NCBI GenBank assembly: GCA_010015585.1
Contig: ML975149.1
DNA length: 64,000 bases
Origin: Eremomyces bilateralis CBS 781.70
Lineage: Eukaryota
Reading direction: 5' to 3' (one strand)
Shown here piece after piece: positions 2,113 to 12,034 of the stretch. Position 1 is the stretch's first letter; each line of letters begins with the position of its first letter. The translations under genes were made by a program, and so were the position numbers. The notes under the pieces were generated by a model. It worked only from the letters and a program-made list of their open reading frames with translations, ran no database searches and was not told the origin of the DNA.

Positions 2113-2762
2113 GAGTTTGGAGTAGCGACGCTAAGTTTTGCTAGGTGCCGGTTGTTGCTCTCTTCTGGCACATGTTGCCGTGTGTGGGCATGCGAACACC
2201 TGGGAGTGAGTTCATGTCTGTATCCAGATGAGTTTCATCCTCAACCAGCGAATGCATTTGCAAGGCTCGCTAATCAAAACTCCTGCCTTGCCGCTATCCA
2301 CTACTGGAGAGCAGCTATCGCCTGCAAAGTAATTAGCGCAGACATCAATACTACGGGTGTCTTGGCACAAGGATGAAAGCGCTGAGGGAAAATAACCTGC
2401 AAAACGCCCTCTAGGAACCTGAGAATTCCCAGGACGTTCTACCAGCATCTTTAGTTAGTGAGGTGAAATTACTTGCTTGATTATTCTAAGATGTAGAAGA
2501 CATAGGATTCCTTTTATAGTAGGAATTATTGTGTTAACCCTTTGTCCTGTGTTCTCTTCCTTAACACTTCCAGTCATCCCTTTTTCCAACATATTCCCGT
2601 AGTATGTACGCTCATTAAGGATTAAGATCAATCAACACTTTCAATTCTTGGTAATCAAGTGCTCTCCTGCTGAAGTCGCATCTCCAGATCACCTGATCAA
2701 AGGAACAGCTATTCTCTATCAGATATCGATCAAGCCACAGAGGACTGAATATCATTATTTCC

Positions 2763-4052
2763 TACACTGACAGGACATAAGTCTGGTCAGGGTCGTCAAA
2801 TCACGCGAAAATCCCCCATCACCACCCACACATTGAGATACGCTCAAAAGCGTAGAGAGAGCGATCAGTATACTATTTTTTGATTTCCTAATTGAGACGC
2901 GTCTAGTATTTCGTATGCCAGCCCTTTGCTTTGACCACCGCTCGTAAACGCTTCGGAATTGAGTCAATCAGTGCCCAGATGGTCTCCTAAGGGATCACCC
3001 ACCACGCCTGATTTAACGCCGTGTTCATGGCCTCCCGTGCGTCCTCTGAGGCACCTATCATCTTCAATTCAGGGTGGAGCTCTAGGACCTTGGTTTTTAA
3101 TAGGTGCCACATGTGTTCGATGGGGTTAAGGTCTGGGGAATGGGTTGGCCAATCGATAACCCAAATACCATGCGTCTCCAGCCATTCTTGGGTGATTTTG
3201 GCCGTATGGATCCTTGCATTACCCTGGATAACAGTATCCCCAGGTACATACATAGGGAGGAGCCCCTCCTCTAACGTAGCGATGTAGGATTTCGCGGAAT
3301 AGCCCTGTCTTAGAGGGTCTTCGTCGCGGTCCATGATCACCAGCTCCGACCTCCCTTCACGCGAGATTGAGCCCCAAATCGTCTGCGAAATCGCCTTTCC
3401 AGGGGTCTTAGGCTCGATCATCTTTGGCTCGTATGCTTCGTGATATAGGCGCCATATCCAAACCTGTTTTCCGCCGGCACATTTCTCATAAGAGTACTCG
3501 TCTGTAGAGTGGGTCCTTGAGAAGTCGAAATCTACGAACTCACAGGCGAATTGGAGCCGGTCTTTGACGTGGTAAGGCCTGAGATGGGGCCTCTCCTTCG
3601 CTCGCCACTTCGTAAGGTGATATTTCTTAAGCGTTCGGTAGACAGTCTTCTTTGAGATCCGGAGGTATTCGACGCCTGCGAGGAGCTCTGAGTACTCCAT
3701 CTTTGGGAATCTGCGTGCAATTTTGACGATATGCCGTTCGTCTGACCGTGATAATATAGGGGGGCGGCCCTTACGAGGTCTAGATTTAAGGAGGTGGTCT
3801 TGATCCCATCTTTTCTGCGTCCTGTACACCGTAAGTTGCGTAACGTTGAACTCCTCCGCCACTTCGCTCTTCGTTTTCCCACAAGCTAGGTTCCCTAAGA
3901 TCACAGCTCTTTGAACATCGGTTAATTCGTCGTTTCTGCGTCGATTGGCACTAATTTCATTACCGAAAGACCTCATTTTAATGGTGATGTTGATGGTTAA
4001 AATGGTGGTATTCAGCTGAGATAAAAGTCTTGATGTGTGACTGACCAGACTT
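2763..4052 (-). mobile_element. Tc1/mariner-superfamily DNA transposon (DD34E, impala-like), defective
   Basis: Left end TA-CACTGACAGGACATAAGTCTGGTCAG (2763-2790). Its inner 12 bp recur inverted at 4041-4052 (CTGACCAGACTT), but the outer part of that TIR is missing. A transposase lies between the two ends. Confidence 0.88.
2903..3976 (-). pseudogene. Tc1-type transposase pseudogene
   Basis: HTH region with RKGRPP, then STDE, QGNA (canonical QDNA, so the second catalytic D is G) and WPTHSPDLNPIE with 34-residue spacing. Premature TAG at 2989-2987; the frame continues ETIWALIDSIPKRLRAVVKAKGWHTKY* to 2903. Confidence 0.9.
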
Positions 4053-4238
4053 GTGGCTTAGTACTTTACTCCACTCAAGCGCCACGCTCCTTGCCTCCTT
4101 TATTATGTAATACGCGTTGTTTCATCTCATTTACAGTACATAATGATCGATCTCTTATGACCAAATCACCCTGAAATCCAACTATTCAGTAGAATCAGTC
4201 GGATAAATCTAACTAATAGAATGAGGCTCCCTACCCCG

Positions 4239-5560
4239 CTACACAACGTTTGTAGCAACGTCCTTATTGCCATTTCCTATAAATATAGGGCTCCTTAGTG
4301 CAGCTGCTTTCCGCAGGTTGTAAATCTTTTCTACCCTTGAGGGCGGGCCCTGCCTACCCGGATCTCTTTGTCGTAGTTTGCATGCGACTTCTCTTACTTG
4401 ATCTAGACAAAGGGTCTCTGCGCTCTCTTTTGGGAGTGCTCGTTGTCCGTCGATTGCTGGCTCAGCATTCACTTCCTCGTCCATATCTATGTCCATATCT
4501 ATGTCCATATGGTTTGAGTTTTCCGAGGCAATGTCACTTTGTGCCACGGGTATCCCTAGCTGGTTCGGGCCGGGCAGGACATTATATTGTGTTTGTATAC
4601 AATCGCAGGTTTCACCAGTCTGCCTATCCAGACTCCTGCCACAGTTTTCTGAGCTGCGCCATCTGCACTTCGCTCGTCCACAGTCGCCCCCGAACCAAAA
4701 GGGTCTCTGCCTGTGGAACGCCTGTTTGTTCCTTAAGCATACATCACCAGCGTTCCAGCCTAGCGACTGGTCCTGTCTCTCTGTATACCGACACGCGCAT
4801 CCGTTCTCTCGAGCCACGTGGTAGTCTCTCCGGCCGGGGTTTGATCCCGCCTGCTTTCAGATTCACCGAGGGTCAGAGCCCATTGAAGGGATGAGGTCCT
4901 TGGAGCCAGCAGTGGCTACCACGCACTACGCCCCGCGACTACTGTAAACAGTAGCCGTTTCGCGTTGCCTATAGAGGTCTCCCTCTGATGGGCCGACCGT
5001 GTCTTGCAGGATAAGGCAGTACTCATGCGTTTCACGCCGGGCAACGCAAGCAGCCTTATCCCATTAACCAAGCTCGTGTCCTCCATCATCTTAAGTTGGC
5101 CCGTGATTCTCCTATTGTATAGATCCAAGCGACGGGTCTGTGTCTCCATTAAGCCTCCCACCAGGAGCATACCTGTGTTTCTCCTCTATCGACTGGCCTG
5201 TAACTCCAGTTCCGTAAACTGTCGTGCTTGTCGCGCCCGGTAAGCTCGTGTCGTTATGGTATTAACAGGTTCCGATAGAGGGGCCTTAACAAGCGCTCCC
5301 GTTGCGAAGAGGCCCTCCGGCCTTAACAGAGTTCACCTAGATTTATACAAGTTAGCCTTAACAAGTTCTTTAGAATTAGGATTGTTCCAAACCCTCGCTA
5401 CACGCAACTCGTTGCTCACGCGTAACCCCAGAGTAGGCGAGCCTGAGGGTGTCCTGTTAGGGGCCTAGGACGCATCCTCATCCACCTGATAATAAGTCAG
5501 GCTTCCGGATCCAGCTGCGAGCTAAATAGACCCCTATCGGATGGTTTTCATCTCCCATTT
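4239..5560 (-). pseudogene. Degenerate coding remnant of unknown family
   Basis: One minus frame (~5550-4916) reads as protein with sparse TAG/TGA stops (..LRVARVWNNPNSKELVKANLYKSR*TLLRPEGLF..ASR*RRNTGMLLVGGLMETQ..). ORF 4239-4817 follows downstream and contains a 12-bp MDID repeat. No family recognised. Confidence 0.3.
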
Positions 5561-5877
5561 TTATCCCTCAAGAGGCTTCCCTTGATGAAAGGACACCGTG
5601 TTTAAGCAGAGGCAGTAAACACGGTCGTGCTGGTGTTGGTGGTATGGCGATACCCCGCTCAACGCTTGCGACCTGCACGCGTAATGCGTGCGTCTCTCTC
5701 ATCGCCACTACACTTAGCCATCGATCGAGAACTCTTCCCCATTAATGTTTCCACCCGCGGCGACATGGACGCGTACAGTTGGACTTCGCGGGCAGTTCTG
5801 CCTATTAAAACAAGGATAGAATTGTATGTTCCTACTTTTTATACCTGATTTCTCCCCCCAATGTTCCTAAGTGCAAG

Positions 5878-6059
5878 TTACTGGCACACTCCTGAGTAGC
5901 AGTTCCCAGGACCACAATGATCAGAAGTACTCCTGCAATAGCCGTAATTACTGCAGCAATCCCCGTTACAACACAGGTCTTGTTGCCTGCAAAGTTCGGA
6001 CCACAGGAGCCATCTAGGCTGGGTCCTCCGTCGTCCGTATGACATGCACCGCCATCTAG
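5878..6059 (-). pseudogene. Hevein-type chitin-binding (CBM18) domain remnant, frameshifted
   Basis: Minus strand reads LDGGACHTDDGGPSLDGSCGPNFAGNKTCVVT, then after a frameshift GDCCSNYGYCRSTSDHCGPGNCYSGVCQ*. This is the CBM18 C-G..C..CC-S-x-x-G-Y-C..C..C..G-x-C pattern. Not in the ORF track. Confidence 0.8.
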
Positions 6060-6739
6060 GAGACGCTTAATGTAGATTCCGAAAATATGAGAAATATGTA
6101 CTAGCTACAAAACGTCGACCTTCGGATCGTTATAGCCAGGAAGCTCGACGTACAAGAACATCAATGATATTGTGCGGTGGTAATAAGCCAAGTTGAAAAG
6201 GCGTTTCAAGGGGAGAACAACCAATTATAGAGATCGATGTAAGCCAAAAAGAATTTAAGCCACGTAAAAATAAGTGAAGTTGTTCATTTTATCACAGCCT
6301 TGCACTCCTTTGAAAACACCTTACCCGTCTTTCGCCATGCCAAAAGGAAAATAATATGAATCACTCAAACAACCGTAAGATGATAGGCCTTGTATACTTG
6401 CAATGCTCCTTCAGTGCTCTGGACCATAGCGAAGAACATTGTTAAGAAGAGTAAAGCGCAACCCAGAACGTGCACCATTGAACGCCATCCTGCCGATCCG
6501 CCCACCTGGAAGGCTGGAAGGATCGACAGGATCGTCGGTTGCAGTTCGCCAAGGCTACGTGGCGTTGCTTGGCGTTTACCTCTCAGATCAATCACCTCGC
6601 TCTTCCACCAACGACCACCGTAGTTCTTTTTCCATCCAACAATCACCTTGTTCCTTTTCCATGGAACAATCAACTTGAGCACTTTGTGCCGTCATCACCT
6701 ATACCAACAACTCGCTCTACTGATATGTGACCTTCAAAC

Positions 6740-7606
6740 ATGCTGCACACTCGCATTTGGCAGCGTGCGGCCCATGGACATCATGCTTCCCGTCATGTCT
6801 ATGCACTCCTACGCCAATCAAGTCCTATCGATCGATTCAAATCCTATCCAGGTCTATTCCGCACTACAACCCGTACATCTTTATTTCCCTATAGTTTTAA
6901 TATTTACTAATAGCTCTATAGGTTTGCTGCATGACGATAGTAACATTGCTCCGTCTCAGTCCTCCGAGTCCCCTCCTCAGTCCGCTCAGCCCGCTCAATC
7001 CTCTCCGTCCCCCCCGTCCTCTCCGTCCTCTCAGCCCTCCTCTCAATTCTCACCTGCGCAGAGCGCTACTACGGACAAGATCAGCGCGCTCCAGATAGAC
7101 ATGGCTACTACATCAACACGATTGGATCACCTCAAAGAGTCTTTTGGGATCCAAGTTGTTAGCCTCAAGTCCGCAATCAGTGCTCTCGATACCAAGTTCG
7201 ATACGAAGTTCAATATTCTCGATACCAAGCTTAGTGCCCTCACGACCGAGTTCAATGCCTTCAAGGCCGAGTTCAATGCCTTCAAGGCCGAGTTCAATGC
7301 CTTCAAGGTCGACGTCAAGGCCGAGTTCAATGCCTTCAAGGTCGACGTCAAGGCCGACATCAATACCATCTCGTATAGCCTCAATACCAAAATTGATTCA
7401 AAGTTTGCAGAATTGCAGCAACAACAAATGCGATTGGTATGGCGGGTGGTCTTTACTGTAAGTAATATCCCTCCAATTATATCGATATACCTGTTAATAG
7501 TATATAGCTTTTAAGCAGTGTGGTTGTGGCACTTGGCGGTGCGACCACCTTATTTATGCGAGACCGTTTAGCTCCGTTGGAGACTCGTCCTGTTGCGGAG
7601 AAATAA
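6740..7606 (+). CDS. Predicted mitochondrion-targeted coiled-coil protein with a C-terminal transmembrane anchor (CCDC90/MCUR1/DUF1640-like architecture). Exons 6740-6872, 6922-7457, 7508-7606
   Basis: Introns 6873-6921 (GTACAT..TACTAAT..TAG) and 7458-7507 (GTAAGT..TAG) keep one frame. Product: Arg-rich, acid-poor N-terminus MLHTRIWQRAAHGHHASRHVYALLRQSSPIDRFKSYPGLFRTTTRLLH, a Ser/Pro/Gln linker, a heptad coiled coil, then hydrophobic LVWRVVFTLLSSVVVALGGATTLFM and RDRLAPLETRPVAEK*. Confidence 0.75.
7246..7353 (+). repeat. Perfect 21-bp units (ccgagttcaatgccttcaagg) x4 with 12-bp inserts (tcgacgtcaagg) x2, encoding EFNAFKA and EFNAFKVDVKA
   Basis: 21-bp units at 7246, 7267, 7288 and 7321; 12-bp inserts at 7309 and 7342. 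Confidence 0.95.
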
Positions 7607-7719
7607 TATATAATCGCAATAGGTATGACTACGCATTAATGAGAAATGGAATAAGATTTAATTAGCACTAAAACAAGTTTATTATACCCCCCCTATACGA
7701 CTAGTTAGGTTTAGAGCTA

Positions 7720-8890
7720 GAATAGAATAAATCACCTGTTGACTTGGCTGTCTTCAACATCAAGCCATTGTCTTATTTCCAACCTGTGTGGATTTTGATG
7801 CCTCAGACATCTGGACCTTGTTGATTCTGGATCTGATGGACCGTGGACCAGGATGGCTATTAAGGCCGGGTCGGCTGATGGATAACTATTATTATTTGGT
7901 CCATTTAACGCCTGATACGGTCCTATCTAGTCCATGCAGGCTGTATCGCTACTATGGAGGACAAAAAACCCTGTAGGGAAACCCTTTTAGAAAACCACGC
8001 TAGCGCTACGGCGGCTTGCCCGCTAATTATAGCCCTATTTTTATCCTCAATTGTTGTTCACTGCTGGGGACCACTGCTTCCGCTCTCGCGGATATCTTGC
8101 GAACCGCCTGCATTACGCAGGCCTACCCCTTCTTCTCCCTCTCCCCCTATTCATCCCTAATCCCTTGGAACGGCGCGAACCCTGAACGGTCTTCCTCTTC
8201 TATCTTGCTGGCGAACTGAAATTGTAGGAGTAGACCGCGTGCGACTATCCAGCGGGCCGCCGCTATTGCACTCGCCGGAGTGGAGAGGATCTCAAGCAGG
8301 CCCTGTGTTTGGATCCGTGCGAATAGCTCTAGCCGAGCCTGTTCGCGTATTGAGCAATGGATCAGGACGTGACGTACTGTTTGCGCAGACCACCCGCAGG
8401 CGCAACTCGGGCGTATCTCCGGAACTCCAACCCCTGCAAGCCATGTGTTGAGACCGATCACCTCTGAGCGGAGGGGGAAGAGGGCAGTAGCGACGTGTTT
8501 CGGGGCTCCGTCATATAGTTTTAGGCGGTCCTCGCGCCAGTTGCCCTTCCAGATGCTTGCCGTTTGGTTCTGAGCCTTGCGTTGCCATTCCTCCTGCCAG
8601 TTGCGATCCGCTCACTTCCCGATGGCGGTTTTTATGCGGAAGGGTTGTAGTGGGGGACTCCTACCTCCCCCACGGCGGTGTTGTCGGGCTTCTTGCCTGA
8701 CCATTTGGATGATCTCCTCAGCACGCTGGCGCCCCATCTCCGCCACGCTGTGTGGACGTATGCGTATCGCACGCGGCCTGCGTCTTCCTCTTACTCCTTG
8801 CACACCCCTATTCTGCAGCGTCCCCCAGACCCTTTCCAGTGTTTCCGATGTCTTAGCCACGGCTGGGTGGCTGGCTGACTTGGCGTAGTA
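7720..8890 (-). mobile_element. Non-LTR (LINE, Tad1-like) retrotransposon 3' remnant
   Basis: Minus strand ..IGK*ADRNWQEEWQRK..WREDRLKLYDGAPKHVATALF, then a frameshift into LRSEVIGLNTWL..CACGWSAQTVRHVLIHC (ORF2 C-terminal CCHC finger)..AARWIVARGLLLQF. A possible TATTC-repeat tail lies near 7720-7730. Boundaries are approximate. Confidence 0.8.
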
Positions 8891-9344
8891 GCCTAGGGCG
8901 CTTGCTTGGATGTAAATACATGATCAAAAGATCCCGAGGTCCAGCGCCAGTGCGAAGAAGTACAGTGACTAGCGAAATTGGCTTCCGCCCTGCGCGGCCC
9001 AGAAATTCTCACTGCACCGCCACCTCGCACTCTTGGCGTAATCTTTACGCCATGGTTCTTAGTTATCAATATAGTAGTTACTGTATTCATTCGGCCCCTA
9101 AATGCTTATCACATTGATGCCTTACCATGGCAATCACGTGAACCCAAATGCCCTTCGTACCGTCGAGCCATTCAGCGCAGCGAGTTCTCCTGCGAGGCTG
9201 GGTTCAACCTTCGCCAGCCTTATCCCCATTTCCAAGTGTACCACCACATCCCCGTCATGGTTCATTCACTCTTTATCAAGAAACGATGTTTGAGTCTACC
9301 GGGAGACTTAAACTCTGGAACACTCCCTACTCTAAGTAAGAGCC

Positions 9345-12034
9345 ATGCGTCTACTAAAGCGCAGCGGCAATGGGGAGCTCAGTATGACCGACGACCTGGT
9401 TGAGGACGATATCCGTCGGAAATACGCCATCCTCTCGCATACATGGATACACGGCGAGGAGGTTACATTCGAGGAATTTCAGAAAGGTACGGGAACGCAC
9501 AAAGCTGGATACAAGAAGATCGAGTTCTGTGGAGAGCAGGCCGCTCGCGATGGGTTAGAGTATTTCTGGGTGGACACTTGCTGTATCGATAAGTCCAACA
9601 ACACTGAGCTGTCGAAGGCCATCAACTCCATGTTTCGATGGTACCGCGATGCGACGCGATGCTATGTCTATCTGTCGGATGTATCAGAGCCGGTCCCTAA
9701 TACAAACAACTCGCATTCGCCACCTTGGGAGACGGACTTTCGGCGAAGTCGATGGTTTAGGAGAGGCTGGACGCTTCAAGAGCTGATCGCTCCTAAGGTA
9801 GTCGAGTTTTTCTCCAAAGACCGAGTGTGGCTGGGAAACAAGAGATCGCTCGAACAGCAGATTCGCAAAATCACCGGGATTCCTGCGGCGGCCCTTCAAG
9901 GAGGTGCACTCTGTCAATTTAGCGTAAAAGAAAAACTGTTATGGGCTCAAGGTCGCGAGACAACGGGGGCGGAAGACCAAGCATACTCATTGCTGGGGAT
10001 TTTCGGGGTGAGCATGGCAATGATTTACGGGGAAGGAATAGACGAAGCGTTCCGGCGGCTCCATTTGGAAATTGAGAGAATATCCAAAGGCATATCATCC
10101 TCCTACCTCTTCTCACATCACAACGACGAGGAGTAAGGGCCGGCTAACTGAAACAGGCAACCAATTCGAAGACTTCTCGGTCAGCTTTAGTCTCGCGGAT
10201 GTTTCCGAAACTGAGCAATTCGTCGCAAGACAGACAGAATTGCTAGAAATGCACAAGACCCTTCAAGGCGATGGTAGTCGTCGCATCGCTGTCCTTCACG
10301 GTCTGGGAGGAATCGGTAAAACTCAGCTCACGGTCGCCTATGCTAAGCGGTATCGAGACAATTACTCGGCGGTGCTCTGGCTCAACGCCAAAGACGAAGA
10401 CTGTCTCAAGCAGAGCTTTGGCAATGTAGCTCGGAGAATACTCCAAGAACATCCGTCTGCTCCACGTCTCGGTGGTGTGGATTTGAAAGGGATCTTAGAC
10501 GAAGTAGTAGAAGCGGTCAAAGGGTGGCTAAGTGTCTCCAAGAACACCAGATGGCTCGTCATCTATGACAACTACGACAATCCTAAATTACGAGACGATT
10601 CGAACCCGACAGCATTAGATATCAAACGATTCCTCCCTGAATCATACCAAGGGTCGATCATTATTACCACGAGGTCGTCGCAGGTTACAGTCGGCCGTCG
10701 TATACCAGTCGGAAAATTGGAGGATATGCAGGACAGCATCGAGATTCTATCGAATGCGGCAAGACGAAACGGACTACGCGATGGTAAGAGATTCCATAAG
10801 TAAAAACATGTTTCTAACATGACCGACAGATCCGGACGCCATCGCACTTGTCAAAGAGTTGGACGGACTTCCTCTTGCACTAGCAACAGCCGGATCATAC
10901 TTGGATCAAGTGGCAGTCAGCTTGGCCGAGTATCTTCAGCTGTACAAAGCATCATGGCTGAAGCTACAGAAAAAGAGTCCGGGACTAAGCTCGTATGAAG
11001 ACCGAAAGCTCTATTCGACCTGGAACATTTCTCTAGGCCATGTCCGACGGCAGAACATGCTCTCGGCTCAGCTTCTTCAACTGTGGGCGTATTTCGATAA
11101 TCAAGATCTTTGGTTCGAGCTTCTTCAGCACAACGACTTAGAAGATCCCGAGTGGATTCGTGCGGTCACTGAGGACCGAATCAACTTCAACGATGCTGTT
11201 CGAGTGTTATGTGACCATGGACTGGTGGAAGCGGATTCATTGTCGCACGAGTTGGAGTCTCGTGGATACAGCATGCACAGCTGCGTACACTCCTGGACTC
11301 GTCATATGTTAAATCAAGAGTGGAACTGTAACCTAGCGAAGCTAGCGCTGAAGTGTGTCGGATTACATATTCCTGGAACTTCGAGTGATCGGTGGTGGAT
11401 TACGCAGCGACGGCTTCTAGGGCATGCGGCCAGGTGTTCCTTAATGGAGACAGAGGCATACGGCGAGATGGAATGGGCGTTACATAACCTGGGCCTGCTC
11501 TACGGCGACCAAGGGAAACTGAAGGAGGCAGAAGAGATGTACATGCGAGCGCTACAAGGAACGGAGGAGGCGCTTGGACCGAAGCACACATCCACTCTTA
11601 TTACTGTGGGCAACTATGGTGAGCTGTATACGAAGCAAAACAGGCTAGTCGATGCCGATAAGCTGATCCAACGGGCTCTGCGAGGATTGGAGAAACTACT
11701 TGGCCCTGATCATTTGATTACACTGGGGGCAGTCAATGGCGCTGGTCTTTTGTATCACAAACAAGGTCGGCTTTCTCATGCAGAGAGGACGTATCAGCGA
11801 GCATTACAAGGATATGAGAAGGCAGTCGGGAGTGAACAAGCCAAGACTTATGTCCCTGCGCTTGACGTAGTGGATAACCTCGGTAATCTATATGTGGAGA
11901 TGGGAGAGGAGGAGAAGGCACTGGAGATGTATTTGAATGCTCTTTCAGGATTTGAAGTTGTGCAAGGCCGGTCGAGCAAGCGATGGCAGGATATTAGTTC
12001 CTCTTTGGCAGCATTGCATGGGGATGTGGATTGA
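9345..12034 (+). CDS. HET-NB-ARC-TPR NLR. Exons 9345-10089, 10157-10783, 10830-12034
   Basis: HET motifs YAILSHTW, WVDTCCIDK, AINSMFRWY, WFRRGWTLQEL. P-loop HGLGGIGKTQL, WLVIYDNYD, IIITTRS, GLPLAL, MHSCVH. About four TPR units (HNLGLLYGDQGKLKEAEEMYMRAL..). Intron 2 10784-10829 is canonical; intron 1 is modelled as GC-AG 10090-10156. Confidence 0.92.

Follow-up and report, generated by a model that had tools for sequence, protein, structure and literature searches.

A conserved N-terminal head domain ahead of a coiled-coil stalk defines the proteins of the DUF1640/CCDC90-like family (PF07798), among them Put6 (Fmp32) and Put7 of yeast and MCUR1 and CCDC90B of human. As described in PMC7519068, proteins of this family follow a common order of parts, with an N-terminal leader of targeting type, a long coiled coil and a transmembrane (TM) helix at the extreme C-terminus; Put6 and Put7 in particular have a sequence for mitochondrial targeting, a coiled coil and a TM helix, and sit in the inner membrane with their soluble part facing the matrix. 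Here we analyse a gene whose product has the same order of parts, located at positions 6740-7606 (plus strand) of a 64,000-nucleotide stretch of contig ML975149.1 (assembly GCA_010015585.1) from the Dothideomycete Eremomyces bilateralis CBS 781.70; we refer to this whole stretch as the window. Likeness extends to the stalk, whose hendecad-like repeats are similar to repeats of bacterial DUF1640 proteins. The differences are that the head domain is missing here, with a disordered linker rich in serine, proline and glutamine (S/P/Q) instead, and that MCUR1 has two TM helices (according to bioRxiv 10.1101/2025.10.14.682030) whereas this protein has one.

The gene is an intact, spliced, transcribed nuclear gene of three exons, and by sequence comparison it belongs to a small, previously unnamed Pezizomycotina family with a common leader, stalk base, TM helix and both intron positions. 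For the protein itself we lean, tentatively and at somewhat less than even confidence, towards a DUF1640-like scaffold, a coiled-coil protein of the mitochondrial inner membrane with a stalk of variable length. A second class of described proteins bears on that reading: tail-anchored coiled-coil proteins, such as SNARE-like tethers and mitochondrial outer-membrane proteins, likewise lack a signal peptide and have a helical coiled coil ahead of a single TM anchor that lies within ~40 residues of the C-terminus. They differ in that Pfam finds no SNARE or other named domain here, and their class is not characterised by a basic, conserved leader at the N-terminus.

Gene structure and protein layout

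Joining three plus-strand exons (6740-6872, 6922-7457 and 7508-7606) by script yields 768 nucleotides that encode 255 residues and a stop codon, and the spliced product is letter-identical to the NCBI hypothetical protein P152DRAFT_453585 of E. bilateralis CBS 781.70 (P0004 in our protein set). Exon 1 begins with the ATG and supplies residues 1-44 and the first base of codon 45, comprising the basic, presequence-like leader. It is followed by intron 1 (6873-6921; 49 nucleotides, phase 1, GT..AG, 24% GC), which reads GTACAT...TACTAAT...TATAG and so has a TACTAAT branch-type signal near its 3' end. Exon 2 (residues 45-223) opens with LHDDS, a short, conserved acidic motif, and goes on to encode the S/P/Q linker, the stalk that forms the coiled coil, and the initial half of the TM helix. 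Intron 2 (7458-7507; 50 nucleotides, GTAAGT...TATAG, phase 0, GT..AG, 28% GC) splits that helix, the second half of which lies on exon 3 (residues 224-255 and the stop codon at 7604-7606) together with a charged 15-residue tail starting MRDR.

Transcript-like support comes from a single public run, X1, which was the sole match and contains 57% of the words sampled from 6500-7800; its label "RNA?" is a guess, and none of the runs containing words from this interval is on record as RNA. The contigs of X1 nevertheless behave as RNA, because they are intron-less and their flanks are bare: they cover 6750-7727 only, with none on 6500-6719 or 7732-7800, and they skip both introns exactly (6873-6921 at a depth of 556 with 123 nucleotides on the shorter side, and 7458-7507 at a depth of 267 with 41 nucleotides on the shorter side). 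Within the reach of these contigs, the 3' untranslated region runs from 7607 to 7727. The original prediction that splicing would give a complete and intact protein is thus borne out, both by identity with P0004 and by the appearance of the two junctions in the X1 contigs, so that the worry that the junctions might be unsupported falls away. The ATG at 6740 lies outside the X1 cover, which begins at 6750; its support is the MLH(R)T start, which is kept both in P0007, a spliced relative, and in L001, a metagenome locus that we describe below. Between 55 and 137 nucleotides upstream of the ATG lies a 27-nucleotide tandem repeat (6603-6685; ~2.8 copies, 81% matches), likely part of the promoter or the 5' leader and not covered by the transcript-like contigs.

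The layout that had been proposed from the letters alone, with a basic leader, an S/P/Q linker, a coiled-coil stalk and one C-terminal TM helix, agrees with composition, with an AlphaFold2 (AF2) model, with periodicity and with hydropathy. Residues 1-45 hold eight Lys or Arg, five His and one Asp, the first acidic residue being D32, and they end in ...RTTTR, followed by LLH. The helical hydrophobic moment of this leader peaks at 0.53-0.67 over residues 15-32, an amphipathic stretch, and a similar leader is present in P0007. The LHDDS motif and the low-complexity linker occupy residues 46-95 (6924-7073); the linker is encoded by an imperfect 9-nucleotide repeat (6954-7039) and is disordered in the AF2 model, with a predicted local distance difference test score (pLDDT) below 50. 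Measured from H48 to H114, the distance is 66 residues in P0004 against 36-47 residues in the 12 relatives that have both columns.

Residues 96-212 form the stalk (7074-7424), which opens with a conserved base, DKI..LQ.D.ATT..LDHLKES, and continues in variable repeats. AF2 models a single helix across residues 90-247, in which the mean pLDDT of 10-residue blocks is 84-95 over residues 101-230, and the large hydrophobic residues of 96-212 recur with a periodicity of 3.58 residues that none of 500 shuffles reached. At the DNA level the repeats are in frame and near-perfect (7235-7364; 21 nucleotides in 3.7 copies with 92% matches, and 33 nucleotides in 2.5 copies with 96%), encoding heptads (EFNAFKA) and hendecads (EFNAFKVDVKA), both of which are coiled-coil periodicities. 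The sole hydrophobic segment follows at ~214-240: Kyte-Doolittle hydropathy averaged over 19 residues (KD19) has its maximum of 2.01 at residue 220 and exceeds 1.6 only for windows starting at residues 214-222. No hydrophobic signal was found in the N-terminal 80 residues, where the KD19 maximum is -0.21 for windows starting at residues 1-62. The protein ends in the 15 charged residues that come after the TM helix.

Relatives and stalk-length variation

A word-indexed search returned no match besides the protein itself. Using HMMER against 1.84 billion representatives we recovered 56 proteins at E<=1e-3, six of them (query included) at E<=1e-10. The family was counted from 49 of the 56 matched sequences, the other seven being mostly long proteins matched in repeats only, and it comprises 17 of these 49, query included (alignment A1), which is to say 16 true relatives. 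Members have in common the LHDDS motif, a short S/Q linker, the stalk base DKI..LQSD.ATTK..LDHLKES..T.I, a block of repeats that varies, and the TM start LVWRV.F. Cluster look-up for 10 relatives gave two named fungi, Lepidopterella palustris (Dothideomycetes) and Emydomyces testavorans (Eurotiomycetes), and eight entries from metagenome or run assemblies. Searching a 5.8-billion collection by profile contributed six more sequences and no additional named genome, and E. bilateralis is present once each in this search and in the word-indexed one. Within the window, tblastn with P0004 and the 16 relatives matched the gene itself only, with no second copy.

Many of the relatives are recorded as unspliced read-throughs (P0006, P0008, P0010, P0014, P0016, P0019, P0025, P0027 and P0040), in which the N-terminus (..INSSIG..) is the translated 3' end of intron 1 and the C-terminus (VS..IFTI.YLLIVYS..) is translated intron 2. 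Their recorded lengths and termini are artefacts, because fungal DNA was gene-called without splicing. The same intron-derived peptides at both ends indicate that both intron positions are conserved across the family, and the DNA alignment with L001 agrees. That locus was the only one confirmed among 99 pattern matches in a metagenome search with a narrower alignment (A2), and it lies at 1015-1580 of a 1638-bp contig on which no other gene is recognisable. Although L001 keeps exon 1, the position and 3' end of intron 1 and the position of intron 2, it is a decayed copy, with a TAG in frame within the linker, an intron-1 acceptor that reads ATGG instead of ATAG, and no stalk repeat block at all.

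The repeat unit is 7 or 11 residues long and differs from member to member, and the length of the stalk, taken from the conserved His of LDHLK to the TM helix, ranges from 57 to 128 residues in 15 members. We read these comparisons as stalk length having varied through independent 7- and 11-residue repeat expansions in each member. The suggestion that the gene evolves fast holds good on these figures, since the repeat arrays differ in every member.

The scaffold reading and its rivals

The mechanism that we consider most likely is modelled on descriptions of Put6/Put7 and MCUR1/CCDC90B. The leader would act as a mitochondrial presequence, as its composition suggests; after import, the C-terminal helix would hold the protein in the inner membrane; and the stalk would self-associate in the matrix into a parallel coiled coil, serving there as a spacer or scaffold of variable length. 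Several observations weigh against this proposal, some concerning the leader, stalk and anchor and others the likeness to DUF1640 proteins. The presequence-like character of the leader is one of composition, the five His that it contains are unusual for a presequence, and acidic residues occur in exon 1 of the branch formed by L001, P0014 and P0016. For the stalk, a Fourier test on Kyte-Doolittle values showed no significant signal in the 3.4-3.8 band (the observed value is reached by 86 of 200 shuffles; the top period is 2.25), because Ala counts as hydrophobic and dominates that scale in this sequence. Finally, the position of the TM helix, with 15 residues after it, would suit a tail anchor just as well.

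A tail-anchored protein is accordingly the main rival to the scaffold, and we judge it a possible, if rather unlikely, identity. The C-terminal helix would then be inserted post-translationally into the endoplasmic reticulum or the mitochondrial outer membrane without any cleavable signal, the entire N-terminal part with the stalk would be cytosolic, acting as a tether or spacer, and its basic leader would be no presequence. Such an arrangement suits the single TM helix at ~214-240 of 255 residues with its short tail, the moderate hydrophobicity of that helix (the KD19 maximum given above, with Gly, Ser and Thr inside and Arg on both flanks) and the absence of an N-terminal hydrophobic segment. 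The best feature match in the ESM Atlas also points this way, being a t-SNARE coiled-coil homology cluster at 0.82; this is under the bar of 0.9, and with all feature scores at or below 0.82 and all structural TM-scores (template modelling) below 0.5, the Atlas matches serve as leads only. Against a cytosolic N-terminus stands the basic leader with its conserved start, kept in both P0004 and P0007, for which such a terminus has no need. Moreover, DUF1640 proteins too carry their TM helix at the extreme C-terminus and are imported all the same, as reported in PMC7519068.

Similarly unlikely, in our estimation, is that the gene is a true but highly diverged DUF1640/CCDC90-like paralogue, one with the same origin as the family, after loss of the head domain and rebuilding of the stalk. 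PF07798 is the best Pfam match of the whole of P0004 (22.2 bits, E 1.4e-4), and the match is colinear, with profile positions 29-170 of 175 aligned to residues 92-233, TM helix included. It is matched at E<=0.01 by six of the 17 family members, one of which, P0006, passes the gathering cut-off at 35.3 bits. Common descent is favoured further by the hendecad EFNAFKVDVKA, which resembles a repeat in the consensus of a bacterial DUF1640 set, and by phmmer, which finds bacterial proteins that pass the PF07798 cut-off (P0036, P0042, P0058, P0053, P0022, P0047 and P0048). Set against this, the score of P0004 does not reach the gathering cut-off of 33.5 bits, and the head domain (profile positions 1-28, which in the bacterial set A3 reads ..DT......L...G.....A.A..) is unmatched, the disordered S/P/Q stretch at residues 46-95 standing in its place. 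More members match Baculo_PEP_C (9 of 17) than match PF07798.

The likeness is also reached by proteins of other kinds. Clearly differently built proteins score about as high as P0004 or higher on PF07798, though below its cut-off: P0024, which has an N-terminal TM helix (24.1 bits), P0033, with a fused ion-channel domain (29.4 bits), P0034 (29.5 bits) and P0045 (31.7 bits). For profile-profile comparison with hhalign, we assembled a set of seven bacterial proteins above the PF07798 cut-off (A3) and a control set of seven repeat coiled coils below it (A4). Alignment A1 matched A3 at 95.6% (E 1.2e-8) in the repeat region only, and it matched the control, despite its different architecture, more strongly still (97.7%, E 1.5e-12). 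This strongest profile-profile score belongs to repeat coiled coils of the Baculo_PEP_C/NPV_P10-matching type (bacterial LDTKID-type proteins such as P0024, P0035 and P0052), which resemble our family in their short polar repeats with Phe, Leu or Ile at core positions; they differ from it in being bacterial, in having an N-terminal TM helix or none, and in having neither the leader nor the LHDDS motif nor the conserved base of the stalk. Their likeness to the family is compositional. When the A1 profile was compared with sequences of the Protein Data Bank (PDB), no MCUR1 or CCDC90B chain appeared in the best 60 of 361 matches; the best was apolipoprotein A-IV (E 1.5e-6), and the PDB matches listed are driven by repeats (apolipoproteins, haemagglutinin HA2, fibres).

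By these comparisons the DUF1640 likeness is not specific, with similarity no stronger than that to unrelated repeat coiled coils. Because of the sub-threshold score, the unmatched head, the higher-scoring control and the lack of MCUR1 or CCDC90B chains in the best 60 PDB matches, we do not file the protein as a DUF1640 member; its layout is alike, and it may work alike. The match to CCDC90, MCUR1 and DUF1640 proteins that the original prediction put forward therefore stands for the order of parts, which is that of Put6/Put7, MCUR1 and CCDC90B, and does not stand for family membership. Membership is unproven and on the sequence comparisons partly contradicted, the choice being between descent from a DUF1640 protein and convergence on its layout. 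That the gene is the core single-copy DUF1640 orthologue of Put6/Fmp32 type is contradicted by the lack of fungi-wide orthologues, two other fungi being all that were named. With 16 true relatives in 1.84 billion representatives, the gene is rare, accessory and fast-changing and is not that core orthologue, as had been supposed from the start.

That rarity would also suit a young, weakly constrained orphan gene, transcribed and open but with no conserved cellular role, whose repeats drift freely. The clear decay of one relative, L001 (a stop codon, a lost acceptor and no repeat region), and the low-complexity expansion seen in both linker and stalk would fit such a gene. We nevertheless regard this as improbable, given that the leader, the LHDDS motif, the stalk base, the TM helix and both intron positions are conserved across two Pezizomycotina classes, that the open frame has been kept through 130 nucleotides of near-identical repeats, and that the transcript-like contigs are spliced. 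The mitochondrial scaffold of variable stalk length remains the reading that we carry forward, with the reservations given above.

Genomic surroundings and the question of NLR partnership

The original prediction placed the gene between two genes for nucleotide-binding oligomerisation domain-like receptors (NLRs), with decayed elements on both sides. On the left, Pfam identifies a NACHT (NPHP3_N)/WD40 open reading frame (ORF) on the minus strand at 1-1957, which extends into a WD40 repeat at the edge of the window. No Met precedes its P-loop, and the three ORFs of at least 68 residues in the 1 kb upstream are without a Pfam match; with neither a Met nor an upstream domain, this NLR has either lost part of its N-terminus or begins with a very short one that lies behind an intron. 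Between it and the gene lies a Tc1/mariner-type transposase ORF (2987-4057, minus strand), uninterrupted over 356 residues and matching HTH_Tnp_Tc3_2 and DDE_3 (the latter over profile positions 59-135 only); a search of 2400-9400 showed no terminal inverted repeats for it. On the right, a minus-strand ORF of 154 residues without a Pfam match (8147-8611) includes a Cys/His-rich stretch that may resemble the C-terminal tail of non-LTR (long terminal repeat) retrotransposon ORF2 proteins.

Beyond this ORF comes the second NLR, a plus-strand gene with HET, NB-ARC and TPR domains at 9336-12034 that extends over three reading frames. Both changes of frame fall at canonical intron signals (GTAAGG..GCTAAC near 10130 and GTAAGA..TCTAAC..ACAG at ~10785-10829), so that it looks spliced and may be intact rather than decayed. 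The two NLRs do flank the gene as claimed, if loosely, given the Tc1/mariner-like ORF and the ORF at 8147-8611 that intervene, and the description of decay on both sides is correct in part only, being doubtful for the right-hand NLR. From ~17.6 kb to 64000 the window holds mainly ordinary conserved genes, among them a TRI12-type major facilitator superfamily transporter, Pmp3, Dis3/Rrp44, V-ATPase subunit H, an Fpg glycosylase, SF3A2, Rsc7, a NatA auxiliary subunit, a CAP-Gly/LRR protein, an arginase and a sugar transporter. The NLR/transposon patch thus takes up about the first 14 kb, at the edge of a conserved block. We also considered whether the gene might be mobile cargo, and rejected the idea because 2400-9400 contains no inverted repeats and no flanking direct repeats beyond pairs of chance size.

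A further reading has the protein acting together with its NLR neighbours, whether as guarded target or decoy, as an allorecognition determinant, or as a membrane-directed death effector that an NLR triggers. Fungal NLR-partner effectors (HeLo, HELL, SesA, or PNP_UDP with C-terminal amyloid motifs) are similar in that this too is a small protein near NLR genes, and the search frame of PMC9815663 was proteins of 200-400 residues encoded within 20 kb of NLR genes. The differences are that no such domain is found here, that a TM helix takes the place of an amyloid-type C-terminus, and that no motif is held in common with the NLR N-termini. Proximity (4.8 kb from the NACHT/WD40 gene and 1.7 kb from the HET-NB-ARC-TPR gene, in a patch rich in transposon remains) and the rare, patchy, fast-changing family with its decayed copy L001, a pattern also seen in non-self recognition genes, speak for a partnership that we consider very improbable all the same: it is a matter of position in one genome; transposon-like ORFs intervene towards both NLRs; Pfam finds no known NLR-partner domain; the P0004 termini, compared by blastp-short with the first 120 residues of each NLR ORF, gave E values of 23 and 42 only, with no common motif; the main text of a survey of fungal NLR effector domains and their neighbours (PMC9815663) mentions DUF1640, CCDC90, mitochondria and coiled coils zero times; and the patch itself is small, since ordinary conserved genes prevail in the window from ~17.6 kb onwards.

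A functional link to the NLRs beyond linkage is speculation, as only position ties the gene to them. In its fullest form the idea would make this a rare, lineage-restricted family of mitochondrion-directed, membrane-anchored coiled coils that serves as a polymorphic NLR partner, its stalk remodelled in each lineage by expansion of its repeats and the gene kept in birth-and-death NLR patches, for which we see very little likelihood. If true, it would add an NLR-linked component of a new kind, one that has no amyloid motif and no HeLo-type domain, and it would matter more than the scaffold; nothing raises it above linkage.

The locus is, in any case, an unannotated and rapidly remodelled small family, which has stayed invisible to routine annotation because most of its database relatives are unspliced metagenome read-throughs with intron-derived peptides at both ends. 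The function of the MCUR1/Put6 class is still debated, according to PMC7519068 and bioRxiv 10.1101/2025.10.14.682030. Should the scaffold reading be true, some Pezizomycotina would possess an accessory membrane scaffold of MCUR1/Put6 type in which stalk length changes quickly by the gain of heptads and hendecads, and these natural length variants of a membrane-anchored spacer could help to ask what stalk length does.

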